From Promethearchaeota archaeon (lineage in GTDB: Archaea > Asgardarchaeota > Lokiarchaeia > Sigyniarchaeales > SOKP01): 64,000 bases of DNA. Shown here piece by piece: positions 16,430 through 34,385 of this stretch. Position numbers and translations under genes: made by a program. The stretch lies in contig JAHPZE010000003.1 of the NCBI GenBank assembly GCA_019058365.1, forward strand, positions 64,001 to 128,000. Direction: 5' to 3'. Position 1 is the stretch's first letter. Every line of letters starts with the position of its first letter. The notes beneath the pieces were generated by a model. It was not told where the DNA came from. It did not search any database and saw nothing but the letters and a program-made list of their open reading frames with translations.

Positions 16430-16810
16430 TTATCTCTCTAAAGCTGCGCTAGCTTTATTTAGATTATCAACTCCAAGAACTATTCTATTATTTTCAGCTA
16501 AATAGATCAAGTCAATATTAACTCCAGCATTACCTATTTTTCGAGCCATCTTTCCCCCAGTGCCGGGTTTTCCTACAACATTCCCGATATCTATAACCAA
16601 TACATCGCGTATAGCCCTTACTTCAAAACCAGCATCTTCGAGTGCCCATTGAGCTGTGGTTTCATCTTCAACCAGAATATGGACGACACCTTCACCTTTT
16701 TGGGGAAATGCACATAATCCTTCCATATTAATGCCATTTTTGCCTAAAGCCTCACCCATATCAGCTAGAGTACCTGGTTTATTTTTCAAAATAACGGTTA
16801 AATCTTTCAT
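16430..16810 (-). CDS. ACT-domain protein
   Basis: LKNKPGTLA...GINM and KPGTGG...AGVNI tandem ACT motifs. Confidence 0.85.
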   Translation of the reverse strand: MKDLTVILKNKPGTLADMGEALGKNGINMEGLCAFPQKGEGVVHILVEDETTAQWALEDAGFEVRAIRDVLVIDIGNVVGKPGTGGKMARKIGNAGVNIDLIYLAENNRIVLGVDNLNKASAALER

Positions 16811-17108: not shown

Positions 17109-17294
17109 TCAAAAATATCGAAGCTTGTGAATATACTCTTTTTTATTATATCTCTTTTTAGATCACTGCAGAAATGTAAAAATAATCTTAAATATTACCA
17201 AATCATACTAAATTCTTACTATTTTGACTAAGATATTTACCTAAAAACTTTCTGTAATAATTTTAAAATTTTAAAAAAGGGTAAAATTTTCCTT

Positions 17295-17307
17295 TAGAAC
17301 ATACTCC
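17295..17307 (-). repeat. 23S-trailer core motif, copy 1 (TAGAACATACTCC on +), 4 nt past the tRNA-Pro 3' end
   Basis: Exact GAACATACTCC at 17297-17307. Confidence 0.7.
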
Positions 17308-17311
17308 ACTA

Positions 17312-17385
17312 TGGGGTAGGAGGGACTTGAACCCTCGACCTCCTGATCCCGAACCAGGAATCCTACCAAGCTGGACTACCACCCC
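17312..17385 (-). tRNA. tRNA-Pro(CGG)
   Basis: Reverse complement folds to a cloverleaf: acceptor GGGGTGG/CTACCCC, anticodon stem CCTGG/TCAGG with loop TT-CGG-GA, T arm GGTTCAAGTCC. Confidence 0.95.
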
Positions 17386-17440
17386 ATTTCGAACATTTCT
17401 CGTAATCCTTATACCTTAAACCCATTCCTTTTTCCCAAAC

Positions 17441-17525
17441 TAAAAAAAATAAAAAATTTAAAAACCTCTATTATGAACGGACTCTTTCTCATCCCACCTC
17501 AATCCATACAAACCTTACCTTACCG
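17441..17525 (-). repeat. Highly degenerate 23S-trailer relic, copy 2
   Basis: A-tract followed by ...tatgaacggactct...ctcaatccat...ccttacc; colinear with 29911-29985 but diverged. Confidence 0.45.
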
Positions 17526-17568
17526 TTTCAAATAAAATATATATCCTAGGGTTCTTAAATTCTTACTT

Positions 17569-18048
17569 TTACTTTTCATTTATTTGTTTGCCAAATTTAA
17601 TGGCATTTTTTGTTCCGATCCACAATATTTTTCTAAATTTTCTCTGGTTGATTACTTCGGCTCCTGCTTCTTCTACTTTTATTTTCATATATTCTAATGC
17701 TTTTCCACCAGTAAAACGAGCAGTGTTAAATACAATCGCTTTTTTTCCACTAAGATTTCCCATTCTTGCTAAGATTTCATCAAAAGCTTTTGGTGGAAAA
17801 TTTCCATATGTGGGCATACCGAAAATAATTAAATCATAACTTGCAGCATCAAGAATATTCAATTCCGTTTCTATTGCTGAAAAATCTTTATTTTCGAACT
17901 TGTCTAACAATTTTATCTTTTCAATAAATTTCCCGGTTATTTCGACTGGAAAGTAACTCACTTCATGAGTAGCCAGAGCACTCGCAATAGCTTCTGCTGT
18001 TTTTTTCGTTCTTCCTCCCATTGTAAAATATGCAATTAGAATTTTCAT
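17569..18048 (-). CDS. Flavodoxin family protein
   Basis: ILIAYFTMGGRTKKTAEAIA; YDLIIFGMPTY. Confidence 0.88.
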   Translation of the reverse strand: MKILIAYFTMGGRTKKTAEAIASALATHEVSYFPVEITGKFIEKIKLLDKFENKDFSAIETELNILDAASYDLIIFGMPTYGNFPPKAFDEILARMGNLSGKKAIVFNTARFTGGKALEYMKIKVEEAGAEVINQRKFRKILWIGTKNAIKFGKQINEK

Positions 18049-18119
18049 AATAAACAGTAATTTTTGAATAAACTAATTCTTTTGGATTGGTTATAATAAA
18101 AAGAGAAAAATTGTAATAT

Positions 18120-18758
18120 TTAGAATTTCCTTGACTTTCCTTGCAAATCAAAATTTGCTATCATCCCACTTCTATTCTTAAACTCCCAATTTTTTCCAAA
18201 ATCATTATATTTCCAAAAGTGAGTGTTACAAATTTTGAAATCTGAGAGGAACATACCAAAAAGAGAATTTTGAAGTCTTTGAGGATTTTTCCCATCGAGT
18301 CCCGGAGCATAGGATAATTTCATTTCTCCATTAGGCATAGTAATGTGGTAAGTATTTCCTTCTTGATTTAGATTAATATCGACATATTTTATTCCTAAAA
18401 TCTTTTTTAAAAGTATCGCACCAGGTATATTGTTAATAAAAAGAGGTTCTAAATACCTCCTTTGTTCTTCAGTAGTTTTATTACTAATATATAGCCCTCC
18501 TTCTCCACCTTTTGGCAGAACATCAGCAGCTTTATTAGAATATAAATCAATTACATTAATAGCCAATACTCCACTAATATCTACATCTCCAATTTTTCCC
18601 TCATTATATTGGAACAATTGAAATGATTTGCATGGAGTTTCTCTGTCTCTCCCAAAATAATATGAACAGAGCCCCTCTGATGCGCATGCCTCATACCACA
18701 CACCTTTCATACTCCAACTAATTCTCTCACTAATTTCTTTAGCCATTATTTCACCCAT
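18120..18758 (-). CDS. DUF1326-like protein
   Basis: W.MKG.WYEAC...C.C N-terminus and G.GDVDISG pattern. Confidence 0.65.
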   Translation of the reverse strand: MGEIMAKEISERISWSMKGVWYEACASEGLCSYYFGRDRETPCKSFQLFQYNEGKIGDVDISGVLAINVIDLYSNKAADVLPKGGEGGLYISNKTTEEQRRYLEPLFINNIPGAILLKKILGIKYVDINLNQEGNTYHITMPNGEMKLSYAPGLDGKNPQRLQNSLFGMFLSDFKICNTHFWKYNDFGKNWEFKNRSGMIANFDLQGKSRKF

Positions 18759-18850
18759 TTAGTTTAATTTTAATTGAATTTTAAATTTTATGGCCTAGCA
18801 TTTATAATTAAGAAGAAACATTTATTAAATCATTCTATAAAACAAAATTA

Positions 18851-18902
18851 GTTAAAAATAAAAGCTTCTACTCAAGAACATACTCCGTCCTTTCTTATCT
18901 CA
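18851..18902 (-). repeat. 23S-trailer relic, copy 3
   Basis: A-tract + CTCAAGAACATACTCC (core 18876-18886) + tcttatctca. Confidence 0.85.
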
Positions 18903-19000
18903 CTATTAAATCCTGCTTTTTCCGCATCTGCAAAATAATTTATTTGTTATCGAAATCAAATTTAAATTTTTTTATTTCTTAAGTATAATTTATAATTACT

Positions 19001-19603
19001 TTGGAGATTATAATGGTAAAAAATAAAATTAGACCTAATCCATATATTTACCCAATGCCTCTAGTTCTAATTGGTGCAAATGTTAATGGTAAAGCAAATT
19101 TCATGCCGCTTGCTTGGATTAGTATGGCAGAACATGAACCTCCTATGATTTCAATATCCTCATCTAAATCTCATTATACAAATAAAGGAATAGTAGAAAA
19201 TCAAACGTTTAGTGTCAATACACCCTCAGAAGATATGATTAAATCCGCAGATTATTGTGGCTTAAAATCTGGCAAAGATATTGATAAATCAAAGATATTT
19301 GAAATTTTTTATGGAGAATTAGGAACAGCACCAATGTTAATAGAGACACCCTTAAACCTTGAATGTAGAGTAGTGAAAATAGTAGACACTAAAGATTTTA
19401 TCGCCCCTGATAAAAGAGGACATTATATTTTTATTGGCGAAATTGTTCAAGCATATTCAGGTGAGGAATATCTTACAAATGGAATCCCTGATATAAAAAA
19501 AATAAATCCATATACACTTACCCAAATCGATGCGAGTTATTGGAAAATTGGTGAAAAAATCGGTAAAGCTTGGAGTATTGGAAAAGATTATTCTACTAAT
19601 TAA
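19001..19603 (+). CDS. Flavin reductase-like FMN-binding protein
   Basis: YPMPLVLIGA, FSVNTP, DYCGLKSG, NLECRV, FIGEIV. Confidence 0.9.
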   Translation: MEIIMVKNKIRPNPYIYPMPLVLIGANVNGKANFMPLAWISMAEHEPPMISISSSKSHYTNKGIVENQTFSVNTPSEDMIKSADYCGLKSGKDIDKSKIFEIFYGELGTAPMLIETPLNLECRVVKIVDTKDFIAPDKRGHYIFIGEIVQAYSGEEYLTNGIPDIKKINPYTLTQIDASYWKIGEKIGKAWSIGKDYSTN

Positions 19604-19874
19604 TCTTATATTTTTTTTAATGAATATTAATCCATGTATTTAACTCTCAATTTATAATAAGGATTTAATAGTATCTGAATTATTCATAGTAAGATATACC
19701 AAATTATTAACAAAAAGATCTTTATCTTTTGAATTTTATTTTTCATTTTAATCATCATCTCAAATTCATTAACATTCTTATTTTTATAATCACTGAATTT
19801 TGCTAAAAATACTGAACCAAATTAATCATCCGAAAGATTCTTTATTATTATAGAGAGAATTATCCAATAAAAAT

Positions 19875-20408
19875 TTAATCAGTTCTATGAATTGGTTGAT
19901 CTATTGCCTTTAAATAGTAAATCCTAAAATTTATTCCTTTTAATTTAACCACAACATTAATAAAAATGCCCGGACCCCATTTTGGACCTTCTCGAAATAT
20001 CATCTCATATGTACTCCCATATAGCTTATATTCGTTTGTAGGTAAAGCTGAAATTATTTCTGTACCATATATTAACCATAAACGCTCAAGGCTTATTGTT
20101 GAGGGGAATTCCAAAACACCACTTGCGTGAATTTTAATAACTACTATTAAAGGTTTTCCATCTGGTGGTGAAATTGGCATAAAATCACGCCACATATAGG
20201 TCTCTAAAGAATATGTAATATTCCCTTCATGAATCTCCTCCTGTGCTGTATATATACCAGGTTCAATATAATAATCCCATTTAGGATTTGAATTAGTTCC
20301 GTTAAGATTCACTAAAACACTTATTATACTGAAAGGAATTACAATAATACCTATAATAATTATGATTAATATAATAAAGCTTGAATTCCTCTTCAAGAGT
20401 ATAAACAA
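19875..20408 (-). CDS. Membrane-anchored hypothetical protein
   Basis: N-terminal TM helix; soluble domain with WRDFMPISPPDGKPL and GPKWGPG motifs. Confidence 0.65.
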   Translation of the reverse strand: MFILLKRNSSFIILIIIIIGIIVIPFSIISVLVNLNGTNSNPKWDYYIEPGIYTAQEEIHEGNITYSLETYMWRDFMPISPPDGKPLIVVIKIHASGVLEFPSTISLERLWLIYGTEIISALPTNEYKLYGSTYEMIFREGPKWGPGIFINVVVKLKGINFRIYYLKAIDQPIHRTD

Positions 20409-20490
20409 TCCGTTTCTTAATTTTTATTTACTAAATAGGATTTTTATGTTTTTAAACTTATTTGTCTAAGATTTAAACAATTCAAAAATT

Positions 20491-20606
20491 AAAAAAAATA
20501 AAATCCTTGCTCGTGAACATACTCCTTCCAGCTCTTCTCGTCTCAAACCAAGTATTTCTTCTCATCCATTTCTAAGCTACAAATCCTCATACCCTAAGCT
20601 TGAACT
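20491..20606 (-). repeat. 23S-trailer relic, copy 4 (~115 bp)
   Basis: A-tract, TGCTCGTGAACATACTCC (core 20515-20525), TCTCGTCTCAAACC, ...CTAAGCTTGAAC; colinear with 29911-30025. Confidence 0.88.
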
Positions 20607-20709
20607 GTAAATTGTCAGTTTATTCAAAATTTAATGAATTTAAAATCCAAATAATTATATGTACAACTGTAAAAATTATTCATAGAGAATCGAAAATCTA
20701 TTTAGAAAA

Positions 20710-21987
20710 TTGAAAAAAAAAACCTATATTCTATTAGGATTAGTAATTGGTTTGCTTTTTAGCTCTTTACCTCAATTTAAATTATCCAGGTTTGATCACC
20801 AGAATAATAAAAACAATAATTTAAAGATTAAAACTAATGAATTAGACGAATCATGGGAAAATGCTTTTGAATTTTTTGGATTAGATATGGTTATTGATTT
20901 AAATGATTGTATTTATGTTATGGCAGCTGAAAATTACTATTCAGGTTTGGGTTATTGGTATTATGGTGATCTAATATTATCAAAGTACAACAGCACTGGA
21001 GATCAATTATGGAGTTTTAATTTAGAGGGATTAAGATTAGATTATTCTGTGATTGCTATCGATTCAAAATCTAACCTATATTTAGCAAGCATGTTTGATA
21101 ATTATTCAATAACGCCCAACATGATATTGTTTAAATTCAATTCTTCTGGGGATTTAATATGGCAAAAAACATGGGATGGAGGAGGTAATGGAGATATTGT
21201 CGATATTGGTGTTGATTCAAAAGATGATATTTATATTTATGGGACTGCGGATTTAACTGAAGAATTCAAATCAAGTTTATTTATAGTAAAATATAATAGT
21301 TCTGGTGATCAACAATGGGTGTATCTTTATGGAGAATTAGAGGGATTTTATGAAGGAGAGGATATGGAAATTGATTCAAATGGTAATTTAATAGTATCAG
21401 GTTTTTACTATATCCAAGGGGATTCTTCTAATTGGATAAGATGCTATAATCAGTCTGGAATTTTGAAGTGGGAAATGATTAGTGAACAGGGGGGTTATTA
21501 TAATCTAGCAATAGATTCTTCGGATAATATAATTGTTGGAGGAAGATCATATATAGTGAAATATAATGATTTAGGTGATTTAATATGGGCATGGCAACAT
21601 CATTTTGAATTTTATTGGTCAATTGATATAACATTTGATTCTTTTGATAATATATATGCAGGTACGATTATAAGCATCCCAGAAGACCACCATAATTATG
21701 ATCTATATGTTGTTAAAATTAATAGTTCTGGAAATTTTGATTGGTATTTAACATGGGGTGGTGCAGGTGATGAAGATTTAATCGCAATTGATATTGACTC
21801 AAGTGACAATATCTATATATTATCTGATCATTTTCTACTAAAGAATCCAGAAAGTAATGGGAAATCACTCACTAATGAGAAATTATGGTCATTTTATCTG
21901 ATTATGTTTGGTATCTGCTTCTCTATTTCTGCGATCTCGTTGGTTCTTATTGTAAAGCGACGAGGTCGTAAAATGGAAATAAATTAA
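20710..21987 (+). CDS. Membrane-anchored beta-propeller (SBBP-like repeat) surface protein
   Basis: Repeated KYNSSGDxxW / IDSxDNIY units; N-terminal signal or TM and C-terminal TM. Confidence 0.8.
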   Translation: MKKKTYILLGLVIGLLFSSLPQFKLSRFDHQNNKNNNLKIKTNELDESWENAFEFFGLDMVIDLNDCIYVMAAENYYSGLGYWYYGDLILSKYNSTGDQLWSFNLEGLRLDYSVIAIDSKSNLYLASMFDNYSITPNMILFKFNSSGDLIWQKTWDGGGNGDIVDIGVDSKDDIYIYGTADLTEEFKSSLFIVKYNSSGDQQWVYLYGELEGFYEGEDMEIDSNGNLIVSGFYYIQGDSSNWIRCYNQSGILKWEMISEQGGYYNLAIDSSDNIIVGGRSYIVKYNDLGDLIWAWQHHFEFYWSIDITFDSFDNIYAGTIISIPEDHHNYDLYVVKINSSGNFDWYLTWGGAGDEDLIAIDIDSSDNIYILSDHFLLKNPESNGKSLTNEKLWSFYLIMFGICFSISAISLVLIVKRRGRKMEIN

Positions 21988-22091
21988 ATCTAAAAGCAAA
22001 AATCTTAAGATTTAATTTAGCTAAAAGATAATGCAGACTTCTAATTTAATACTGTTCATGAAAGAAATAAATGATATTAATAATGTAAGCA

Positions 22092-22634
22092 TTAAAAGTA
22101 TCTCGCACCAAAAAAGAAGTAAGCATTCATCAGATAAGCATCAATTATACCAATTACTAAAAATGATAAAGTATTGATGATTGCTGATATTGAAAATACT
22201 GTTTTAGATGATAAGATTATCCTTGATCGATCTTCTGTCAAAAGCTTTTGAAATTCTGATTGATATAAAATCCATTCAATAATGATTACAATAATTTCAA
22301 TCACAAGCCAAATATAGAGTATAAAAATTATATTAAACGCTAATGAAAAATAAAATGCTAAGTGGGTAGCTGGAAATGTGATAAGGTTGACTAGTATTAC
22401 AGATAGTAATAATTCTCGTTTACCCACTTCATGTGACCTCGAAATATCATAAAGAACACCATATTCAATAAATGTATTAAGAAAGAAAGTCCCAACCAAA
22501 GCTATTATTATGAAAACGGGATACTCCCAAAAAGCAATCGGTACGATACCTGCTGGGATATATAAAATTGTACTAGATATAAACGCGATGAATACCACAA
22601 ATCCAATAACTCCAATATAATTTCGAAGCCTCAT
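22092..22634 (-). CDS. Hypothetical membrane protein (about 5 TM)
   Basis: Hydrophobic segments; VNLITFP motif. Confidence 0.65.
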   Translation of the reverse strand: MRLRNYIGVIGFVVFIAFISSTILYIPAGIVPIAFWEYPVFIIIALVGTFFLNTFIEYGVLYDISRSHEVGKRELLLSVILVNLITFPATHLAFYFSLAFNIIFILYIWLVIEIIVIIIEWILYQSEFQKLLTEDRSRIILSSKTVFSISAIINTLSFLVIGIIDAYLMNAYFFFGARYF

Positions 22635-22713
22635 AATGAAATTGTAGATAATGTACTTTTTAAGCTTTTGTGCTCATAAATTTAGTTTTCTATAAATATG
22701 AAATTACCGAAAT

Positions 22714-22868
22714 TGCTCAAGAGCATACTCCTTCCCGTCTTATCTCAAAAAAGCATTTAACAAAACTTACCATCTCCATCCACACCACAATCCCCTACAC
22801 GTTAAGCTTGAACCTTGTGATTCCTCTTTCAACACTATACACCAGTGCTATTGAGAGCAGCGTGTTAA
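22714..22868 (-). repeat. 23S 3'-end/trailer relic, copy 5 (~155 bp; reaches into mature 23S sequence)
   Basis: Colinear with 29930-30080: TGCTCAAGAGCATACTCC...TCCCCTACACGTTAAGCTTGAACCTTGTG...GTGCTATTGAGAG. Confidence 0.93.
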
Positions 22869-22873
22869 GAATC

Positions 22874-23365
22874 TTAAGAATATAACTTCCTTAAATATGA
22901 TTTTAATGTGTCAATATTTTTAAAGTAAAATAAGCTTTCCTCTTCCTTAAAAAAAGGTTTTAATAAACCTCCTCTTTTAAGGACTTCTGTAATTTCCGCA
23001 TCTCTTAATACGAATACTTTTGTCTTTTTAGAAAGTTCTCTAAAGGAGAGGATGATTCCCATTTCGATCATATGACCTCCTTTATCGTGTTCTATAATCA
23101 TGATGATTTCATTCGAAAATTTAGCAATAAGATCAAATTTAAAAATTAAATTCTCAAGATGGGTACGTCTAAATTCTTTTTCAAAAAATCCTAGGTTATT
23201 CTTAACAGAATTTACAATCTTTTGTACTTCTTGAAGAGTAGTGAAAGCTTCTTCATTGTACGAACCACAAATAAAGATCTTGTTTTTCTTCAAATCGTAA
23301 ACTGAAAAAATATTAGTAAATTCATCTAAAAAATCATCCCATGCATTATCGTGTGAAAACTGCAT
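22874..23365 (-). CDS. Hypothetical protein, possibly nucleoside 2-deoxyribosyltransferase-like/TIR-like Rossmann fold
   Basis: KIFICGSY first strand and IIMIIEHDKGGHMIEMG (GxxxExG) pattern. Confidence 0.45.
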   Translation of the reverse strand: MQFSHDNAWDDFLDEFTNIFSVYDLKKNKIFICGSYNEEAFTTLQEVQKIVNSVKNNLGFFEKEFRRTHLENLIFKFDLIAKFSNEIIMIIEHDKGGHMIEMGIILSFRELSKKTKVFVLRDAEITEVLKRGGLLKPFFKEEESLFYFKNIDTLKSYLRKLYS

Positions 23366-23538
23366 TCTCTACTCCCAATAAATATAAAATAAATTAGAAA
23401 TTCATTTATGGTATAATTTATTATATACCAATAATAATTGACTCAATTAATTTTGAGTTAAATTTAAATAATTGATTATGCATATTTAATTTGAAATTAG
23501 ATGAAATATAGAATATAAATAATGAGAGTGAAAAAGTT

Positions 23539-23880
23539 TTGGATACTCCCAAAAACCTTGAAAATATAAGGAAAGAATTGGAAATCATATCAGAAAAGAC
23601 ACGATATAAGATACTGCTAACTTTATTAGCTAGTGAAAAATCTCTCTCATTCAGTCGATTTAGGGAACTTTTACCTTCTATTCCAGAGAATACTCTGAAT
23701 TATCATCTTAAAATCCTTAAAGAACAAAATTTTATTAAAAATGAAAAAAGAATGGGATACAAACGTTCTGAACCTCGCTCTTTTTATTCTCTTAGGAAAA
23801 AATCCATTGATCTGCTTGGAAATTTAGGTTTAAATGATGTGAAAGAAGAATTTCAAGCGTTATTTAAACAAATGACATAA
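23539..23880 (+). CDS. ArsR-like winged-helix transcriptional regulator
   Basis: TRYKILLTL...LSFS...TLNYHLKILKEQNFI. Confidence 0.85.
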   Translation: MDTPKNLENIRKELEIISEKTRYKILLTLLASEKSLSFSRFRELLPSIPENTLNYHLKILKEQNFIKNEKRMGYKRSEPRSFYSLRKKSIDLLGNLGLNDVKEEFQALFKQMT

Positions 23881-23890
23881 TTTATTTTTT

Positions 23891-23975
23891 AAAAAAAAAA
23901 ACGCTGCTCAAGAACATACTCCCCCTCGTCTTGTCCGTTCCATCTCGTTTTTATTCTTATCACCACCCCCAAACA
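23891..23975 (-). repeat. 23S-trailer relic, copy 6
   Basis: A11 tract + CGCTGCTCAAGAACATACTCC (core 23912-23922), followed by a C-rich diverged segment. Confidence 0.85.
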
Positions 23976-24173
23976 CAAACAAAAAAAAATAAAAAACCAT
24001 AGCTAATATAACAGAAATTTTATAATCTTAAAAAACTCCTTTATTTAATATAACTAGACAAATTTATCAAAATATTGGACTCATAATTGTTATGACCATA
24101 TATCCTGAAATTGTATAATCTTATAGTTGTATTATTCTTTATATTTAAATATAACATTAAGTTGAAATAAGTT

Positions 24174-24839
24174 ATGAAATATACTTCTATCTTTGATGTA
24201 ATTGGCCATATAATGGTTGGACCAAGTTCAAGCCATACTGCAGGAGCGTGTCAAATTGCGTATGTTGCACGGTTATTATTTGGAAAAAAGCCTAAAACTG
24301 TAAAAATAGGACTTCATGGTTCATTTGCAGAGACATATAAAGGTCATGGTACGGATATCGCAATTTTAGCTGGACTACTTGGATTTACACCTGAAGATGA
24401 TATGATCAAAAACGCATTTGAAATTGCTGAAAAAGAGGGGCTTGATTATTCATTTGAACTTGTGGATTTAGGGGTGGATTACCATCCAAATTCAGTTAGT
24501 ATAGAGATGTTTGATGGATCAGAAAAAATGAATGTAATAGGTTCTTCAATTGGAGGAGGTAACATAATAATCAAAGAAGTTAATAGCTTAGAAGCAGGAT
24601 TTGGGGGAGAACCAAATACGCTCGTAATATTAAATCATGACAAGATTGGGGCACTTGTAAATATAGCAAATACACTTCAAAAATTTAAATTAAATATAGG
24701 ATCGATGAAAATCTCCAGAAATTTGAAAAAAAAGATATCTTTAACATGGCTTGAAGCAGATACCGCGATACCAGAAGATCTAATTGATGCATTAAAAAAA
24801 TATCCAGAAATAATTTGGGTGAGGGTAATCAATGTTTGA
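24174..24839 (+). CDS. sdaAB: L-serine dehydratase, Fe-S dependent, beta subunit
   Basis: IMVGPSSSHTAGA, LHGSFAETYKGHGTD, HPNSV, SIGGGNI; C-terminal ACT domain. Confidence 0.95.
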   Translation: MKYTSIFDVIGHIMVGPSSSHTAGACQIAYVARLLFGKKPKTVKIGLHGSFAETYKGHGTDIAILAGLLGFTPEDDMIKNAFEIAEKEGLDYSFELVDLGVDYHPNSVSIEMFDGSEKMNVIGSSIGGGNIIIKEVNSLEAGFGGEPNTLVILNHDKIGALVNIANTLQKFKLNIGSMKISRNLKKKISLTWLEADTAIPEDLIDALKKYPEIIWVRVINV

Positions 24840-25698
24840 ATCTATTTCTAATCTGCTCAATGAATCTCAAACAAAAGGGATTCCATTACATGAATTAATA
24901 ATAAACGATGAAATGGAATTTCAAAATATTCCTAAGCGGATTATAATTGAAAAGCTTAATAAATCTTTAATTATAATGAAACAGTCTCTTGAAAAAGCAC
25001 TTGTAAGTGATATTGAATTGCCGATCAAAGAAGCAAGCCATCAGGCAAAAAGAATGCTTTCACCAGGAATTTTCTGTGGAACTAATTTAAAAGAAGCCGT
25101 GGGCTGGGCAATGGCTATCGGTGAATATAATAGTGGTATGGGATTAATTGTTGCTTGTCCTACAGCAGGTTCTTCTGGAACCCTACCTGCTGTTCTTTTT
25201 AAAGCTAAAGAAATTCTAAATAAATCGGATGATGATGTATTAAACGCTTTAATCGTTGCGGCAGCAATAGGGGCAATTATTGGTAATAACGCAATGCTTT
25301 CGGGAAGTGAAGGAGGTTGTCAAGCTGAAATTGGAGTTGCATCTGCAATGGCGTCGGCTGCTATAACTTATATGGCTGGAGGAACCCATCTTCAGATAGA
25401 CAATGCGATTGCATTAACATTAAAAAATCTATTAGGACTTGTTTGTGATCCTGTTGCCGGATTAGTAATTTCACCATGCATTAAAAGGAATGCTATAGGT
25501 GTGGTTAACGCATTTTTAGCTGCTGAAATGGCAATATCAGGAGTTGTATCTATTATCCCAGCAGATGAAGTTGTGGATGCTATGATGAAAGTTGGTCGTA
25601 AATTACCATATGAATTAAAAGAGACAGGAAAGGGTGGAATAGCAGCAACTAAAACGGGGAAAAGAATAAGAAAGAGCCTTTTTTCTGATATGTTATAA
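24832..25698 (+). CDS. sdaAA: L-serine dehydratase, Fe-S dependent, alpha subunit
   Basis: ACPTAGSSG, GGCQAEIG, LGLVCDPVAGLV.PCIKRN, KETGKGGIA. Confidence 0.95.
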   Translation: MFESISNLLNESQTKGIPLHELIINDEMEFQNIPKRIIIEKLNKSLIIMKQSLEKALVSDIELPIKEASHQAKRMLSPGIFCGTNLKEAVGWAMAIGEYNSGMGLIVACPTAGSSGTLPAVLFKAKEILNKSDDDVLNALIVAAAIGAIIGNNAMLSGSEGGCQAEIGVASAMASAAITYMAGGTHLQIDNAIALTLKNLLGLVCDPVAGLVISPCIKRNAIGVVNAFLAAEMAISGVVSIIPADEVVDAMMKVGRKLPYELKETGKGGIAATKTGKRIRKSLFSDML

Positions 25699-26012
25699 CA
25701 TTTATAAATCCAATAGAAAAAAAAGGATGAGTGAGAAATTAAAAATTGAATAATTAGGTCTTTATATTTTTTTTTATTCTCCCTATTTTTATGATTGGAA
25801 TTGTTCACTAAATTTTCATTGAAATCAGGCAGAAATAAATATATCCATTAATATATGTTCTTGAAAAATTAATCATCTCGAATTTTAATAATATACGTTC
25901 TAAAAATATAATTTCTTGCATTTGTTCATCTAATTGTTCAAGATTTAGTTCGAAATAAAAACAAAAATTATAAATATTATTGTTCTATTATATAATATAA
26001 TGGTGTTCAATT

Positions 26013-26687
26013 ATGAAAATGATGATTGAAAAAGATAGAAAAGAGATAATTTCAGAAGTGCAAAAATATGGTGGTATAGGTCTGCGACACCAATCTTTAA
26101 GAGTACACAAGAATGGGGCAAAATTTCCAATAAGTAAGAACTATATTGATGATGAACTTTTGGATCCCGAAATAGTATATACTCTTATTTTAATACCGGA
26201 AATTAAAATTGCTACTAAAACTAGTGTAGCATTAAGTTATTTTGCTCGAAAAAAAGGTCCTCTCGTATTTTATACATATCCCGAGAGCATTCTTGAAGAA
26301 GGTTTTTCCGTTCAAATTGCAAATATAATGGTTCAAGTATCTAAAGAGGGTTTCTTTGCCAACCAGTCAAGCACTGTACCATCAACCTTGAATTATTATT
26401 TTGAAATTCCTTCAGAATGGGCTCGTGGAAATAAAGAAATGCTCATGATCAGCGTGTTTTTAGATAAACCTATAAATAAGCTACTAGAAAAAAGGATTCA
26501 GGAAATATGTACTGATTTTGCTTTGCAATTAAAAAATGCAGAAGGACTTTTTAAAGCGCTATATATGGAAACAATTGATAAAATTCCGGAAAAGGATCGT
26601 TCAGACATTAAAAAATTTAATGAAAATTTAAAAACTAAAATAAAAACTTTATATGAGGAAATAGAAATATCGAGTAAGGAAAAATGA
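26013..26687 (+). CDS. Asgard longin/uDENN-like domain protein
   Basis: VALSYFARKKGPLVFYTYP resembles the uDENN/longin first hairpin (F...GP....YP); SEWARGNKEMLMIS motif. Confidence 0.5.
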   Translation: MKMMIEKDRKEIISEVQKYGGIGLRHQSLRVHKNGAKFPISKNYIDDELLDPEIVYTLILIPEIKIATKTSVALSYFARKKGPLVFYTYPESILEEGFSVQIANIMVQVSKEGFFANQSSTVPSTLNYYFEIPSEWARGNKEMLMISVFLDKPINKLLEKRIQEICTDFALQLKNAEGLFKALYMETIDKIPEKDRSDIKKFNENLKTKIKTLYEEIEISSKEK

Positions 26688-26691
26688 AGAT

Positions 26692-26804
26692 GGTCGCCCG
26701 AAAGCTCCCTACGTACACCCACACCTCACTAACCCCGTCTTTTACGGGTGTACTTGTCTCGCATACTCAGTTCGCACCACCGCGCTCTGATCTCGTTACT
26801 CAGC
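26692..26804 (-). repeat. Internal 23S rRNA domain VI fragment, copy 7 (113 bp)
   Basis: Ungapped match to 30083-30195 with 7 mismatches (counted by eye, ~94% identity). Confidence 0.97.
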
Positions 26805-28625
26805 TTAGGGAACAAAATAATGGGTATTTTGTTGGTGATCCTGTGAATGTATTTTCCCAGTCGATCTAAGTTTATTCAATGTTTCTTTTAGATTTTCTTT
26901 TCCGAATTCTAACATTTTAGGATCTTTAAGAAAATTTTCTAACCTTTTTTCTAAAGCTTCTAATGTAAAAGCAGAACCTTGATTATCTTTCAAATAATTG
27001 TAAATTTTTTCTTTAAAATCTTCTTCAATTGAATATTCCTTCTTAATTGTTGTTGTTTTTTTAAATGCCAGTTTCTCAATAATTTCCATATTCCTTTTTG
27101 TTAAAGCAAAGTCACTTTTAATTTCAAGTGCTTTTTGGTAGCATTTATATGCTACCTCGTATTGCATGAGCATTTGTTGGGCAACACCATTAGCTGTCCA
27201 TGATTTTTCATCAGGGAAGAATCCATGATGCTTAGCTTCTACAGATTTCAGATGTGTTTTTGAAAGATCAGGACGCTTGAATTTAGAAATGTTATTCTTA
27301 GCCATTAGACCATACATCATAATTTGTATTGGATTAAATCCTAATTGCTGACTTTTTGCAAAACACATAAGGGCATTTTTAAACTCTCCCAAGGCGCAGT
27401 GCGCTTTCCCACGATAAAACCATGCTGGTCCTGATGTGGGCTCACGTTCATTGATTCTAATTAATGTAGTAAGAGCACTTTCAAAATTACCAGTTGCTTC
27501 TTCTTCAACGACCATTTGCAATAATTCTTCTATATTCTCTTTATGCATGGGAGTCCTGCAATACGGGCATATACCACTGTTGGTATAATTTTTCTTTCCA
27601 CAGCGGGGACAATAATCACGTCCATCAACAACTGAATGAATTGTACCTTCTACTCCCATCGTACTGAAATGCTTCAATGCATCGATTTGTTCTTTAGCAT
27701 TTTCATGATTAGGTTTTAACTCCAATGTTTTTTTATAATCAGCCAAGGCTCTCTCAAATTGATTAGTTTTTTTGAAACTTGTTGCTCGGTTATAGTATGC
27801 CCCCTCAAAATCTGGATTAATTTCGATAGATTTAGAATAACTTAATATTGCTTCATCATATCTCTCCAGTGAATCTAATGCAAGCCCTTTATTATTATAT
27901 GAAGCAGAATAATTGGGATTTAACTCTATAGCTCTATCATAACATTCAATAGCTTTTTCAAATAAATTTTGGCTATCATAAACCCACCCTTTATGAACCC
28001 ACGCTAAAAATAATGTTGGTTCATATTTTAATGCTTTTTCGAAATAAACAAGTGCATTTTTTTGATTCTGAGACATTTGGTTAATGATACCTAAGTAAAG
28101 ATAAGCCTCAGCAAATTCTGGGAATATTTTAATCGCAGAATTAATCGCATTAAGAGCTTCAGACATTTTATTTCGATGGGTAAGTTTAATACCCTGTTTA
28201 AATAAGTCTAAAGCTTTTTTTGGAATGTTTTTGCCTTCAACTTTTAATGATCCAAAAAACTCCTTCTGTCGCTTTGCTTGCATTAGTAGAGGGAGAGCTT
28301 GTCGAAAATTAGGATTATGCTTCAAAATTTTCTCAATTGTCTCTATTGATTCATCATATTTTCCCTCCATTAAGAGCATTAATGCAAGATTGAGAAGTGT
28401 AAAGGGATTGTAAGGATCATAAGAAAGTGCACGATTAAGACATTCTTTTGCTTTCTCAAACTCCTCAAGGTGGAGATAAACACTTCCCATATTGCAAAAT
28501 AACTCTGGATCGTCATCTACTAGTTTATAAGCCTTTTTAAAAAAATTTAAAGCTTCTTGTGGTTTACGATTATTCAATGCTATTGTGCCTTGGTTGTATA
28601 AATCTTCGTATTCTTTACTATACAA
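26805..28625 (-). CDS. TPR-repeat protein with internal zinc ribbon
   Basis: Many TPR units (AIECYDRAIELNP etc.); CPRC...CPYC. Confidence 0.92.
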   Translation of the reverse strand: MYSKEYEDLYNQGTIALNNRKPQEALNFFKKAYKLVDDDPELFCNMGSVYLHLEEFEKAKECLNRALSYDPYNPFTLLNLALMLLMEGKYDESIETIEKILKHNPNFRQALPLLMQAKRQKEFFGSLKVEGKNIPKKALDLFKQGIKLTHRNKMSEALNAINSAIKIFPEFAEAYLYLGIINQMSQNQKNALVYFEKALKYEPTLFLAWVHKGWVYDSQNLFEKAIECYDRAIELNPNYSASYNNKGLALDSLERYDEAILSYSKSIEINPDFEGAYYNRATSFKKTNQFERALADYKKTLELKPNHENAKEQIDALKHFSTMGVEGTIHSVVDGRDYCPRCGKKNYTNSGICPYCRTPMHKENIEELLQMVVEEEATGNFESALTTLIRINEREPTSGPAWFYRGKAHCALGEFKNALMCFAKSQQLGFNPIQIMMYGLMAKNNISKFKRPDLSKTHLKSVEAKHHGFFPDEKSWTANGVAQQMLMQYEVAYKCYQKALEIKSDFALTKRNMEIIEKLAFKKTTTIKKEYSIEEDFKEKIYNYLKDNQGSAFTLEALEKRLENFLKDPKMLEFGKENLKETLNKLRSTGKIHSQDHQQNTHYFVP

Positions 28626-28744
28626 TAAAAATCACATTTTTGTCTTTGTAATAAAATATTTGTTTAATTAATTTATAAATATTTTTAAGATTGAGATATG
28701 AACATTGAATACCCAAATTTGGATACCTTCTTAATTAAAAATAA

Positions 28745-28873
28745 GAAAAAATAAAACCGTGCTCTAAAACATACTCCAGTCCTTCTCGTCTCAAACCATT
28801 CAATCCTTACCTTATTGCTCCGTCCACGCGACAATCCCCTACACGCTAAGCCTGAACCTTATGATTCCCCTTT
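28745..28873 (-). repeat. 23S-trailer relic, copy 8 (~125 bp)
   Basis: TGCTCTAAAACATACTCC...TCTCAAACCATTC...TCCCCTACACGCTAAGCCTGAACCTT; colinear with 29915-30040. Confidence 0.93.
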
Positions 28874-29040
28874 CTTTAATAACTCCATGCCTTCATTTCT
28901 AATTCTTTTATTTTTCTCTCTTAATTTCTGTATTTCATAGAGATTTTTCCTAACTAAATGTTCTATATATTCTCCTAGTTTTCTTTTTTCCATTAATAAT
29001 ATATTCTTATCTCTCAGATTGTCTATTTCAATTTGATTCC

Positions 29041-29253
29041 CTAAATATTCAATTGGCCTCTTAATATTCTTATCTCAACTCCAGTTCTTTTTTTTGCTTG
29101 AATTAAACTCTCTTTATATTTCCCTTCAGATGTAATCGGAAGCAATTGATTAATTGTAAACAATTTGTCTTCTAAGTCTACTAAATAATGATTAAAAAGC
29201 TCTTTTCTCTTTCCTAAATCCTTAATATCTATTGCTATTTTTTCGCAATCCAT
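29041..29253 (-). CDS. Small hypothetical protein
   Basis: 70-aa ORF lying between two trailer relics. Confidence 0.5.
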   Translation of the reverse strand: MDCEKIAIDIKDLGKRKELFNHYLVDLEDKLFTINQLLPITSEGKYKESLIQAKKRTGVEIRILRGQLNI

Positions 29254-29301
29254 TTTAAGAATTAAAGTTGAAAACGTTACTACTAAATAAGTAAAAGAAA
29301 T

Positions 29302-29356
29302 ATAAAAATAATGCTCATGAACATACTCCTTCTAAACCCTTCTCATCTCAAACCAT
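29302..29356 (-). repeat. 23S-trailer relic, copy 9 (overlaps the stop codon of the adjacent GTPase gene)
   Basis: TGCTCATGAACATACTCC (core 29319-29329)...CCCTTCTCATCTCAAACCAT. Confidence 0.88.
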
Positions 29357-29870
29357 GATAATTGTATAAGAAACTACCAATTCGCTCAAAAACCTCTTCA
29401 CATCCCAACCCAGTCCCCGCTGAAATCTCCATATATCCCATCAAATTATTATCACTTGCAAAATTCCTAATATCTTCTCCAGAAACCTTGCGAACCCCTA
29501 CTAAATCGAGTTTATTTCCAATTAAGTAAATTGGAATATCTCCTGCATATTCCTTAATCATTCTAGGAAATTCAGATAAATAGGTAAAGGAATTTAAATT
29601 TGTCAGATCATAAAAAAGAATGACAACATCTGACCCTGATATAAATATTCTTAAATCACGTCTAAAACTTTCTTTATTCGAAACATTCCAAATCATAAAA
29701 TTAATTACACACTCTCCAACAAACAATTCCTTTTTATAAGCCTCTACTCCTATGGTCTCTAAATGATCTTCAACGAAAAAATGATCATCGATAGACTTCC
29801 TAAGAAAAGTACGCCTTCCAACCTCTCTATCACCGATTATGACAAGTCTGAATATATAATTAGGCTTCAC
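29343..29870 (-). CDS. Rab-like small GTPase with degenerate G1/G3 motifs
   Basis: GDREVGRRT (P-loop Lys replaced), WNVSNKE in place of WDxxGQE, intact NKLD and SA motifs. Confidence 0.85.
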   Translation of the reverse strand: MKPNYIFRLVIIGDREVGRRTFLRKSIDDHFFVEDHLETIGVEAYKKELFVGECVINFMIWNVSNKESFRRDLRIFISGSDVVILFYDLTNLNSFTYLSEFPRMIKEYAGDIPIYLIGNKLDLVGVRKVSGEDIRNFASDNNLMGYMEISAGTGLGCEEVFERIGSFLYNYHGLR

Positions 29871-29909
29871 AATACTTCTATATCAATTTTTCCTAAATAA
29901 ATCATATGA

Positions 29910-29925
29910 TAAAAAAAAAATAAAA
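29910..29925 (-). terminator. Oligo-T terminator of the 23S transcript
   Basis: A-tract on + (T-tract on -) immediately after the 3' processing-stem arm. Confidence 0.6.
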
Positions 29926-30044
29926 TCGCTGCTCTAGAGCACACTCCATCCCTTCTCTTATCTCAAATCATTCATTCCTTACCATCCCCTCCACGCTACA
30001 TTCCCCTACACGCTAAGCCTGAACCTTGTGGTTCCTTTTTCAAC
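29926..30044 (-). other. Current 23S 3' trailer including the 3' arm of the processing stem
   Basis: GAGCACACTCC (29937-29947) and TCTCAAATC blocks are inverted relative to 34361-34380 and 34318-34327 upstream of the gene. Confidence 0.8.
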
Positions 30045-30146
30045 ACCACACACTCGTGCTATTGAGAGTGGCGGGCTGAACAGGTCGCCCGAAAGCTCCC
30101 TGCGTACACCCCCACCTCACTAACCCCGTCTTTTACGGGTGCACTC

Positions 30147-30397
30147 GTCTCGCATACTCAGTTCGCGTCACCGCGCCCTGATCTCGTTACTCAGCATCCC
30201 ATACATTCAAATTATAATGCTTCTCGCTTCATGCTCATGCATATGTCTACCCTCATGCTTCCGCTTCCACAATCAAGCACACACTTACACTCGCACTTAC
30301 ACTCCGATTGGCTTCCGGTTTTCACAGGAGAACCTTACCAATCACACTAACTTAAATACACAACATACCTCGCAACACTCTTTACACGAGATTGGCT
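30147..30397 (-). other. Supersized expansion segment ES39 (~250 nt)
   Basis: Lies between conserved flanks where H98 is normally very short; boundaries approximate. Confidence 0.8.
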
Positions 30398-30580
30398 GAC
30401 TATTTTCGGGTTTGGCTTCGTGCTTAGATGCTTTCAGCACTTATCCATTGGCGCGTGGCTGCCCGGCCTTACCTTGTCAGATAACCGGTACACTAGAGGC
30501 GCCGGCAAAATGTTCCTCTCGTACTGATTTTCCCTTGCCCTCAGTCAACCCACAAACCCAGTAGATAGAATCCGACCTGT

Positions 30581-31391
<811 letters not shown>

Positions 31392-31429
31392 TTAATGGGC
31401 GTACAGCCCCACCCTTGGAGGTTCTGCGC

Positions 31430-31460
31430 TGTGCTCCACTACGGAAACACATATGTGCGC
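31430..31460 (-). other. ~30-nt hairpin insertion at the tip of H91 (mini-intron or insertion)
   Basis: Extra sequence between CCTGG and CCAAGGG, bounded by direct repeat GCGCA, with internal stem TGTGTTTCC/GGAGCACA. Confidence 0.7.
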
Positions 31461-33380
31461 CTCCAGGATAGGAAGAGCCGACATCGAGGAAGCAAGCCAC
31501 GAGGTCGATAGGGACTCTTACTCGTGACAACTCTGTTACCCCCGGGGTAATTTTTCTATCACCTCAACCATCCACACGAGAAATGTTGAGGATCGCTAGA
31601 CCAGGCGTTAGCCTCAGGATTCCTTGGTGATCAGAATCCAGTCAGACCAGCTTATGCTCTTAAACTCTTCAGCGGATTCCTGACCCGCTTGAGCTGATCA
31701 TAGGTTACTCTAGATATTGTTTCTAGAGTGAGCCGCCCCAGCCAAACTGCCCACCTGCGGGTGTCCGACGCGGTATAGGCGCCGTTAGCGATTTCAAAGG
31801 GGAAAGCCGGTGTTCCAATTGTGCTCCGCCGCTACCGAGATAGCGACATCGACGCTCCCGACTACACTCTGTATCCAATTCAAAACCGCAGCAACAAGCT
31901 GCAGTAAAACTCCACGGGGTCTTCTCGTCCCACTGGGTTTCTCCGGACCGTTCGCCGGAGTGCAAGTTCAATCGTCAGGAGGCTGGGACAAGAGGGAGAA
32001 CGTTGGACCATTCATGCACGTCTGAACTTACCAGACAAGGCATTTGGCTACCTTAAGAGAGTTATAGTTACTCCCGGCGTTTAGCAGGACTTACTCGGGT
32101 TGTAACCCGGATTTATCAGACTGCCACTGGCCAGGTTTCAGCCACTGTAAACAAGTTTTCACTCTATCAGTGACCTATGTTTTTATTAAACAGTCGTCCC
32201 CCCCTAGTTATTGCAACTTGTGATCCCCCGCACACTGCCGAAGCTGCGTGTAGAAGATCGCAAGCAAGCCTTATCCCAAAGTTACGGCTCTAGTTTGTCG
32301 ATTTCCCTAGCCTCCTTTACACGAATACGCCTTAGGCTACTCACCTAGGGGCACCTGTGTCGGTTCTGGGTACGATCACGGCATTTCTTACTTGTGCTTT
32401 TTTAATAGGTCCTGGGATTGGCGGAACCTTCCACAATTGGATGGCTATTCATGATTTAAGCTGGGTCTAAGTATTACACTATTCACCAGCCTTATGCATT
32501 TAAATAGGGAAATATTCGACAGCCCTATTCCACCTACCCTGAACCGTCGGCACAAAGTCATGCGTTACCGCTATTTGTAGTGCCGTGGTACAGGAATATA
32601 AACCTGTTTCCCTTTCGCGTATACCAGTTAAGGGTACGCTTAGGATCGACTAACTCTTCGCTGACGACGCATTGCAAAGAAACCCTTGCCCTTTCGGCGG
32701 ATGGGATTCTAACCCATCTATGCTTTTACTATTACCAGGATTTTCACTACGAGCAGATCTACAGGAACTCACGCCCCTGCTTCTTCTCTACCCGCACGCT
32801 CCCCTACCAGATCACGGGGTTCTTCCGCCCGTGCTCTTGGGTCTCGGTGGCAGATTTGAGCCCCGTCCATTTTCGGGGCTATATTTCTCGGCAAATGAGT
32901 TGTTACACACTCGTTAGGGAATGGCTACTTCTATACCTATCCTTTTGCTGTTTTAGAAATATAACGCCCTTTAGTTTAACACTTAACCTGCACTTAGGGA
33001 CCTTAACCCAAGTCTAGGTTGTTCCCTTCTCGGCGATGGACTTTACGCCCACCAACCCGTTTCCCAGAGTCTACAGTGCCAGCAGTTTCGGAGTTTAAGA
33101 GTAAAGTGAGGAATTTCTTCCCCATGCTCCGCAATTAGTGCTCTACACCACTGGCTGCCTCGTCTGAGACTTGGCTGATACCAACTTCGGGGAGAACCAG
33201 CTATCACCGATCTAGATTAGCCTTTTGCTCCTATTCCCAGTTCATCCAAGCGAATTGCACGTCAACACTGGTGCAGACCTCCATCGCCCTTTCGAGCGAC
33301 TTCATCTTGACCAGGAATAGATCGACCGGCTTCGGGTATTATAGCAGAGACTTTTGGCCCTTTAAGACCATTCTTCTGGC

Positions 33381-33467
33381 TTAATTCCTTAGAAGGATTC
33401 GCTAAACGTTTTCAGAATGGCAGAACCACTCTTAAACGAATAGGTCTTCCTAATGTGATAATTAAGT
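33381..33467 (-). other. Enlarged expansion segment ES9 (~90 nt)
   Basis: AT-rich insert between conserved flanks in the H30-H31 region; boundaries approximate. Confidence 0.65.
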
Positions 33468-34309
33468 TGCAAGAATATTGGTTTCCCTATGCCTACGCGC
33501 CGTAAGACGCTTAAGCTTGCCACTACTATAAACTCCCTGGCCAATGATTCCAGACTGATGATGCGACCCTAGTCCTCTGTATTCTGACATTCTGTCACCA
33601 GAACTCATTCATGCAGAATCTGTCCTTTCAGGCTGCATCCTTAATAAGCTATTTGGTTTCAAGCACTTTTCAACGCCCTTCCGGGTTACTTTTCATCTTT
33701 CGCTCACGCTACTATTTCGCTATCGGTCTTGGGACATATTTAGATTTACCAGCGTGTATCTGGCATTTTCATACGAGAAAACCATCCCGCATTACTCGGG
33801 GACTCTCGCAGCAACCTTCTAGATTATGATTACGCGGCTGTCACGCTCTATGGCTCAACATTCCAGGGGTATTCATCTTCTCTAGGGAGGTCGTACAAGG
33901 CCCACACACCACATTTCCCATAGGTTTCCCTAGGGATTCAGTTTGATCTAATCCGCTTTCGCTCGCTGTTACTCACGGAATCACTATTGTTTTCTTTTCC
34001 TCCTGGTACTAAAATGTTTTACTTCCCAGGGTTCCCCTTCCCTCACCTTTCGGTTATGGGAATCTTGTGGATTATTGGGCCACAAGAGGATGTCCTATTC
34101 GAGAATCTTGGGGTCTACGTCTACATGCGACTAACCCAAGCTTATCGCAGCTTGTCACGCTCTTCATCGGTGCCCAAGCCAAGATATCCACCAAATAGCG
34201 GAGGCGTATTGGCGTCTAATTAAGGAAAGATTCAGATTGCTTGTATAAGGGTATGCGTATTCGGAGACAATAAGTCAATTGAGTATTCTTTAGAGATTAC
34301 TCAAAATCA

Positions 34310-34385
34310 TTAATGACGATTTGAGACGATAATAAGAAGACATAAATTAATATTAATTAGGGAGTATGTTCTTATGAGCATGATT
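34310..34385 (-). other. 23S 5' leader arm of the processing stem
   Basis: GGAGTATGTTCTTATGAGCA (34361-34380) and TTTGAGACGA (34320-34329) are reverse complements of the trailer blocks. Confidence 0.8.

Follow-up and report, generated by a model that had tools for sequence, protein, structure and literature searches.

Serial relics of the 23S rRNA tail separate variable gene blocks in a Lokiarchaeia genome and its relatives

Tandem accretion of DNA at the 3' ends of tRNA and tmRNA genes is known from the tycheposon islands of Prochlorococcus (10.1101/2020.12.28.424599) and from additive flexible genomic islands (PMC5217437). The locus described here resembles them in having a variable island attached to a gene for a stable RNA, with partial target copies between the units and the newer units tending to lie nearest the gene; however, the target there is a tRNA whereas here it is the 23S end with its processing-stem trailer, the fixed att there is ~40 nt long whereas the copies here range from ~20 to >500 nt, and the integrase carried by some units of tRNA-type islands has no counterpart in or beside the array, where a transient element is a possible source. 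Integrons and CALINs, including archaeal ones (PMC9668308), share with our locus the ~1-kb blocks of 1-2 genes with related repeats between them, reshuffled among genomes. Here, in contrast, the repeat is an rRNA tail without an attC-like hairpin, no IntI is linked, and blocks hold genes in both orientations with intergenic DNA, unlike the mostly single, uniformly oriented ORFs of integrons. A variable island beside the 23S gene is also found in Pelagibacterales, namely the rRNA-bounded replacement island for the O-chain (10.64898/2026.10.07.757358), which differs in being one large block, with no mention of serial 23S-tail relics in the text consulted. The live trailer of our locus is itself, by its predicted fold, an element of the archaeal pre-23S processing stem with its bulge-helix-bulge (BHB), whereas the relics are orphan half-stems decaying without preferential conservation. 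Finally, homology-facilitated illegitimate recombination, reportedly described in 2002 by de Vries and Wackernagel and by Prudhomme et al., both of whom are cited in PMC3646047, is said to involve single transformation events, usually with resident DNA deleted. The process that we propose would likewise combine one homologous anchor with one illegitimate joint and no site-specific enzyme, but would be iterated at one rRNA site, leaving reusable repeats. Our literature search, with most subscription papers outside its reach, found no description of such a 23S-tail array.

In the window, by which we mean the whole stretch of 64,000 nucleotides that was analysed and to which all coordinates refer, the sole 23S gene found in the genome, of which BLAST returned no second copy, is followed by nine copies of its own 3' end and trailer, all in the same orientation and truncated at the 5' side. 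The array of serial copies is confirmed as real. All copy positions listed in the first-pass annotation, with their single orientation, are recovered by a core search and by a profile HMM of the 23S end plus trailer, with which the relics were called. In fact the core GARCAYACTCC, with at most one mismatch, occurs on one strand at 17297, 18876, 20515, 22721, 23912, 28767, 29319 and, in the live trailer, 29937, while its complement in the leader (34361-34371) gives a ninth match; 1.2 matches are expected, and none of 100 shuffles reaches nine. The HMM found nothing in reversed DNA, and genome-wide it found besides the array only the leader and a weak trace on contig C29 (E 0.011), with none at 16S, in agreement with the earlier expectation that copies cluster at the 23S tail; its relic counts are to be taken as minima, since it overlooked a decayed relic in G012. 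Moreover, a 2021 sediment run, which may stem from the source sample, yielded a Logan contig that matches 25449-30443 at 100% identity, and this part is thus not peculiar to the present assembly. The contamination of the assembly stands at 6.6%.

The 23S gene occupies 30050..34215 on the minus strand, with its putative mature 3' end at ~30050 and the Rfam LSU_rRNA_archaea match at 31318-34215. As a correction to the first-pass annotation, it is split by an intron (~30584..31356, minus) with a LAGLIDADG homing endonuclease ORF (30651-31286); the 3' part at 30583-29913 aligns with the intron-less 23S of a relative, G031. Reading outward on the same strand, to which all relics belong, the live trailer (29905..30042; BHB half 30027-30003, core 29947-29931) ends in a T-tract and is followed by a Rab/Ras-like small GTPase gene (29343..29870, minus; Pfam Ras, 3.8e-30) and by relic 1 (29280..29356; HMM E 3.6e-9), which is 71% identical to the live trailer of its own genome. 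Next come a 70-aa ORF of no family (29041..29253, minus) and relic 2 (28730..28874; HMM E 8e-29), 79% identical to its own live trailer and 84% to that of G031. The gene for a TPR protein (26805..28625, minus) abuts with its stop codon on relic 3 (26687..26804; HMM 26785-26687), an internal 23S 3' fragment without trailer that is 94% identical to 30083-30195. The fourth block (24174..26687, plus) holds the sdaAB/sdaAA genes of L-serine dehydratase (24174-25698) and a 224-aa ORF (26013-26687), called longin-like in the first-pass annotation, with no Pfam match; beyond it lies relic 4 (23887..23970; HMM core 23935-23887), whose 5' joint is identical in G005 and G024. A divergent pair (22874..23880) of a 163-aa ORF (minus) and an ArsR-like HTH gene (plus), which in other lineages adjoins the ACT gene, precedes relic 5 (22684..22869; HMM E 1.9e-35), the longest complete copy, which extends into the 23S end and has a joint common to G005, G031 and G008. 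Farther out lie a beta-propeller-like 425-aa ORF (plus) with a 180-aa membrane protein (minus) at 20710..22634, relic 6 (20482..20605), a flavin reductase (plus) with a 177-aa membrane protein (minus) at 19001..20408, relic 7 (18844..18914; HMM 18902-18844), DUF1326 and flavodoxin genes (17569..18758, minus) and the degenerate relic 8 (17443..17526). The ninth block is a tRNA-Pro(CGG) gene (17312..17385, minus), absent from the first-pass annotation and itself cargo, and 2-3 nt past its 3' end begins relic 9 (17257..17310), a core with T-tract; relics 6, 8 and 9 are HMM matches as well. The ACT-domain gene (16430..16810, minus) is the first of the post-array region that is common to most of the genus.

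According to folding predictions, the live trailer is the 3' strand of a pre-23S processing stem, of which the 5' leader strand lies at 34220..34380 (minus; BHB half 34251-34227): leader and trailer co-fold into a predicted BHB with a 4-bp helix between two 3-nt bulges. Among the studied genome, G005 and G031, between which the 23S 3' region is mosaic, leaders are 93-97.5% identical and trailers 80-84.5%, and the leader of the studied genome co-folds with the G031 and G005 trailers at -100.6 and -95.5 kcal/mol as against -84.0 with its own. In this comparison of 3 genomes, live trailers diverge much faster than the partner leader, an asymmetry to which the G-U tolerance of the purine-rich strand may contribute in part. 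When four relics and the live trailer were folded alone, they were not more stable than shuffled sequences (z +1.2 to -1.6). The idea that the 17-nt core is under selection in relics was considered and rejected, since in long relics this core is no better kept than the BHB motif (5.7% against 3.6% mismatches).

Arrays are found genus-wide, with 168 copies in 51 loci as an HMM lower bound, and also in 3 sister genera; no 23S-tail array was seen in the other families sampled, and no comparable array at 16S. Behind the 16S gene stands a tRNA-like gene, and a trailer of the 23S kind seems to be lacking there. A candidate cross-genus array in G073 lies on a contig 100% identical to G024 and was treated as mis-binned, and g1-type relics in G063 and G150 were left out of use. 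The copies run different distances toward the rRNA, as first observed: their 5' starts range over the entire 240 nt, which speaks against a fixed crossover site, one extends at least ~550 nt, and 144 of 168 finish at the T-tract, all being co-oriented. Orthologous relics keep the 5' joint unchanged between species at 86-97% rpoB identity, so that truncation is not gradual erosion. First relics are 60-92% identical to their own live trailers. The early impression that distal copies are the shortest or most decayed is not general, and a gradient along the arrays was rejected (rank versus 5' start, rho -0.17, p 0.12; versus score per base, rho -0.06, p 0.56). Comparison of relatives did uphold the expectation of variable cargo, in that blocks near the rRNA are species-specific while far blocks are shared yet reordered. 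Relatives have no identical, stable order, and with block order changing even between close relatives and no gradient in length or decay, the array does not read as a simple chronological stack. Moreover, hybrid relics that change parent within the trailer occur in G097/G030, G024/G104 and G101/G019, the 5' part tracking the upstream block and the 3' part the downstream block. Crossovers within copies seem to have shortened arrays as well as lengthened them, and some evidence points to replacement of the live trailer. Microhomology, a 4-5 nt overlap, was seen at a single joint.

As to the contents, blocks hold 0 to 7 ORFs and include divergent gene pairs with intergenic DNA, and among 187 cargo ORFs 108 are sense and 79 antisense. 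A match of >=60% elsewhere in the studied genome exists for 10 of 174 ORFs whereas among distal genes 57 of 82 have one. Of the 95 scanned, 8 are Ras/Roc GTPases, the most frequent cargo family; beta-helix, LRR, TPR and Roadblock proteins also occur. For example, the sdaAB DNA is 91-95% identical across lineages with rpoB at ~86%, and in another genus too; the serine dehydratase pair is 88% identical to Hodarchaeota/Heimdallarchaeota proteins versus 61-63% to cultured Lokiarchaeia, and sdaAB stands natively in a Hodarchaeota operon. All in all, the cargo is accessory and in part acquired laterally. Similarly the tRNA-Pro(CGG) gene is 97% identical to a gene of genus g28 versus 81% to the congeneric gene of G020, and the ancestral tRNA-Pro locus is empty in the studied genome; the foreign gene in the array has taken the place of the native one. 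That this gene is the ancestral distal neighbour of the 23S was rejected, for its block takes differing array positions in the studied genome, G005, G027 and G099, which marks it as mobile cargo.

We consider the most probable reading, at roughly 0.6, to be recombination in which the rRNA tail is the homologous anchor and the far joint is illegitimate, together with excision and insertion between copies. The 23S 3' end with its processing-stem trailer would be the sole conserved homology arm of the region, used by ordinary recombination. For growth, DNA of a relative consisting of 23S end, trailer, T-tract and cargo would recombine into the resident 23S end, while its far end would be joined illegitimately to the resident 23S end or trailer, at a position that varies; the rRNA would stay intact with the cargo directly behind it, and the old tail, now truncated at the 5' side, would be displaced outward as a relic that may still end transcripts of cargo on the same strand. 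Relics being direct repeats, crossovers between relics or with the live trailer would then delete, insert and move blocks and leave hybrid relics, products which are in fact observed. New genes, at the weakest step, would enter via further illegitimate joints in the cargo or past the T-tract. A dedicated enzyme would not be required. The first-pass annotation had likewise proposed repeated recombination via 23S homology; signs of live-trailer replacement and the variable far joints agree with that part, from which we infer the mechanism, and mosaic 23S 3' regions together with fast-changing trailers point indirectly to a homologous anchor on one side. On the other hand, a single illegitimate joint per event does not itself place a new gene by the T-tract. 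No DprA above the family cut-off was found in 5 genomes and a MutS-family gene is present, which leaves both DNA uptake and a tolerance for 10-20% divergence hypothetical.

In a dedicated gene-capture system, either an enzyme not yet recognised or the transcription and processing of the rRNA itself would guide incoming foreign DNA to the 23S terminator, with duplication of the tail. Such a system would be an integron analogue that takes up and circulates accessory genes and genes of eukaryote-like type, small GTPases for example; we regard it as unlikely. Rather unlikely too is in-place duplication at break repair, by which the repair of breaks or R-loops at the 23S terminator, a site of strong transcription, would copy the genome's own trailer at variable length and trap a DNA fragment between the copies, like a long variable target duplication, to be scrambled later by recombination. 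It explains the G097 relic, whose 5' 105 nt are 100% identical to its own live trailer, equally well as our preferred reading; of 46 long relics, 13 have their best match in their own genome, and two new joints per event agree both with a 3' end that is fixed at the T-tract and with captured genes whose native place is elsewhere, such as tRNA-Pro and sdaAB. However, the species-specific proximal relics of the studied genome, at 71-79% to the live trailer, fall below the leader (94.5%) and below an orthologous relic pair shared with G005 (90%, flanks included), live trailers differ past the core, and one and the same joint of T-tract and cargo is met again in other lineages and at other ranks.

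Doubtful, in our judgement, is integration at the 23S 3' end by a site-specific recombinase encoded elsewhere, either XerA or an integrase brought in by a transient element, in the manner known for tRNA genes, with mobility genes and 5' att parts lost later. The architecture does resemble tandem tRNA islands (10.1101/2020.12.28.424599), ~20 relics begin within the first 40 model positions, and several parent switches fall in the 17-nt core, although this last is expected anyway because short relics share the core alone; the starts are otherwise widely spread and stable, and the core is not preferentially conserved. As first remarked for the window, no integrase or transposase is visible: PF00589 has no match in or beside any array in 20 genomes, 0 of 187 cargo ORFs resemble three tyrosine recombinase queries, and 0 of 95 match integration PHROGs. 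In most array genomes a XerA-like recombinase is the sole one, never within the array; serine resolvases and IS110 transposases are absent from 5 genomes and IS200-type transposases from the studied one. Viral contigs bearing the trailer were not found either, and an integrase-bearing provirus in G024, ~1.5 kb from a lone relic, was rejected as its carrier with no att repeat linking the two.

Retrocopies typically have a fixed 3' end at the transcript U-tract and variable 5' truncation. Relics show such ends, one joint lies just past the tRNA 3' end, and some genomes have lone relics far from the 23S, all of which would suit reverse-transcribed pre-rRNA 3' ends with cargo added by template switching; nevertheless this is very improbable, given no RVT_1 (PF00078) match in 5 array genomes, the 79 antisense cargo ORFs, the divergent pairs keeping their intergenic DNA and the lack of dispersal in the studied genome. 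A chimeric assembly or generic terminator motif is the least probable, for although rRNA edges assemble poorly, contamination is present and one relative has a mis-binned array contig, the copies show 46-92% divergence when compared with the live trailer and are not duplicates, joints and block order are common to independently assembled species, the Logan contig agrees across 5 kb and the motif is not genome-wide.

To sum up, under the recombination reading the end of an rRNA gene would serve as an additive integration site without a visible integrase. The array platform has replaced a core tRNA gene, and the mosaic 23S 3' region between species matters for marker trees; the array may also explain why many assemblies break at the 23S tail. 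It offers a fixed, readable locus at which to follow how Asgard archaea, a group with gene flow relevant to the origin of eukaryotes, acquire genes.

The repeat of the array is the 3' strand of the processing stem of pre-23S rRNA together with a T-tract, to which the last part of the 23S is sometimes added, since the leader (the 5' strand, at 34220-34380) and the trailer pair as a long stem with a bulge-helix-bulge (BHB) motif, namely a 4-bp helix flanked by two 3-nt bulges; no attC-like self-folding of the repeat was found. Upstream of the leader stem, a segment at 34395-34530 (minus strand) folds strongly (z -5.5) and has no match in Rfam; over the 150 nt that precede the stem, the related genome G031 shows 93% identity. 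In the window, which is G000:C35:64001-128000, Rfam places the archaeal LSU rRNA at 31318-34215 on the minus strand and a tRNA at 17312-17385; a 5S rRNA did not turn up in the Rfam scan of G000. The Rfam 23S match is cut short by an intron of about 770 nt (30584-31356, minus strand), which carries a LAGLIDADG ORF (211 aa) and is not present in the 23S of G031; past it the 23S resumes, with its 3' end near 30050. A species-variable insertion near this end (30230-30400, minus strand) probably corresponds to ES39, which is reported to be enlarged in Lokiarchaeota (PMC7594248).

Using a profile of the 23S end and trailer, nine relics, i.e. 5'-truncated copies of this region, were located within 17257-29356. 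All the core positions listed in the first-pass annotation were matched (9 matches against 1.2 expected), and its expectation that copies lie only behind the 23S gene was borne out, as the rest of the 4.7 Mb genome gives with the same profile only the leader and one weak trace (C29:17839-17890), and reversed DNA gives no match. Across the genus, 168 relics at 51 loci were found behind the 23S gene in many species, all co-directional with the rRNA and as many as 15 of them within 20 kb, and some species have none in the stretch read. As far as the survey goes, which consists of samples whose kin are not independent, genera g28, g27 and g22 have relics, each of its own trailer type, and none occur in the loci read for genera g18, g23, g26 and g29 or families f2 and f7 (single-contig genomes among them). 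The 16S gene has no array; in G000 (C35:148096-148365, L001) it is unlinked from the 23S and followed by an AT-rich trailer and then an intron-containing tRNA-like gene. Lone relics far from any 23S (L009, L015, L016, L033, L034, L039, L164, L167 and G000 C29:17839-17890) often lie at synteny breaks relative to G000 and may be parts of arrays that became displaced, or scars left by rearrangement. The stretch L134 (G073:C166), filed in another genus, is 100% identical to G024:C25:515-7312 and is a probable binning error; relics of the trailer type of genus g1 in g28 and g18 genomes (L135:9077 in G150:C15, L149:3237 in G063:C90) may reflect transfer or mis-binning.

At the median, a block between relics is 1.0 kb long, and most blocks contain one or two ORFs. 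In total, 108 ORFs are sense and 79 antisense, and the Ras/Roc, beta-helix, LRR and TPR families are the most frequent. The 5' starts of relics are spread over the entire modelled 240 nt, and 144 of the 168 reach the T-tract, which may act as a terminator for same-strand cargo, since the distance from the stop of such cargo to a relic is often no more than tens of bases. One relic has at least ~550 nt; young copies of great length may have escaped notice, because relics are where several contigs end. The gradient proposed earlier, with the distal copies shortest or most decayed, is not seen: rank along the array shows no trend in length or decay.

As had been anticipated, the close relatives G005, G027 and G031 (rpoB DNA identity to G000 97.5%, 97.0% and 94.8%) have their own proximal blocks and common distal ones, followed by a joint core region. 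The order of blocks is not fixed, and the roughly chronological array proposed earlier is not supported, as the tRNA-Pro block is preceded by different blocks in G000, G005, G027 and G099. Orthologous relics have the same 5' joint, which indicates that truncation dates from insertion. Many relics are hybrid, in that their 5' part belongs to the block upstream, and their 3' part, together with the T-tract, to the block downstream. In three pairs of species (G097/G030, G024/G104, G101/G019), one species' relic has the 3' flank found after the other's live trailer (the one now behind the 23S); these pairs, from which the direction of change is not readable, show arrays changing length via crossover inside the repeat.

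The live trailer itself seems to be exchanged. In comparisons of G000, G005 and G031, identity is 93-97.5% for the leader and 80-84.5% for the trailer; in the 5' part of the 23S, G005 is closest to G031, in a variable segment close to the 3' end G000 goes with G005, and over the final 135 nt G000 does not differ from G031. Moreover, the pairing of the G000 leader is stronger with foreign trailers than with the G000 trailer, and every first relic differs somewhere along its length from the live trailer of its own array (identity 60-92%). Taken together, these observations favour replacement by DNA of relatives. G097 is an exception: over 105 nt a relic there equals the live trailer of the same genome, which is compatible with a donor of the same species, with gene conversion or with duplication.

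As for the cargo, matches elsewhere in G000 at 60% or more were obtained for 10 of 174 cargo ORFs of other arrays versus 57 of 82 distal genes. The sdaAB DNA is 91-95% identical between lineages with rpoB of ~86%, and in another genus; its closest named outside relatives are in an amino-acid operon of Hodarchaeota/Heimdallarchaeota (88% protein identity), which is without relics. The array tRNA-Pro(CGG) resembles a gene of genus g28 (97% identity) more than the congeneric one (81%), and the ancestral tRNA-Pro site in G000 is empty. Judging from these comparisons, the array takes in DNA native to other places. At least one cargo protein (alignment A2) matches oligonucleotide-cyclase (CBASS-type) models at 2e-16.

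Repeat identity, confinement, variable and stable joints, hybrid relics, reshuffling and lateral cargo are shown by the data. For the mechanism, we give a probability of roughly 0.6 to growth in which the 23S tail would serve as homologous anchor and the far joint would be illegitimate, with shuffling by recombination between repeats. This best model is weakest in explaining how a T-tract first acquires a new gene behind it; short remnants in common after some T-tracts suggest separate illegitimate joints there. Alternatively, duplication in place at the terminator could have trapped DNA, which we consider doubtful. A trans-acting site-specific recombinase, with decay afterwards, is slightly more doubtful still: most array genomes have one XerA-like gene and sporadic integrases without linkage to the array, no integration PHROG is matched among the cargo scanned, and in long relics the core is decayed at least as much as the BHB motif. 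Resolvase and IS110, as well as reverse transcriptase, were not found in five genomes, nor was an IS200-type transposase in G000, and no viral contig carries the trailer. Retro-copying is highly improbable. That the array is an artefact can practically be dismissed; a Logan contig repeats 25449-30443 exactly, and as it may come from the source sample, it checks the assembly and not the biology. A provirus in G024 (L008:210-9153; C28, ~132-149 kb) encodes a tyrosine integrase and has genes resembling those for capsid, portal and terminase; its distance to a lone, long relic of the 23S tail, which precedes a 1578-aa gene, is ~1.5 kb.

No description of 23S-tail arrays was found in the literature searched. 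In its working the array resembles the tandem accretion known from tRNA genes, yet fails the defining tests of that system, and it looks like an integron array, yet the defining integron tests failed here as well. It is a real, stable-RNA-anchored gene accretion.
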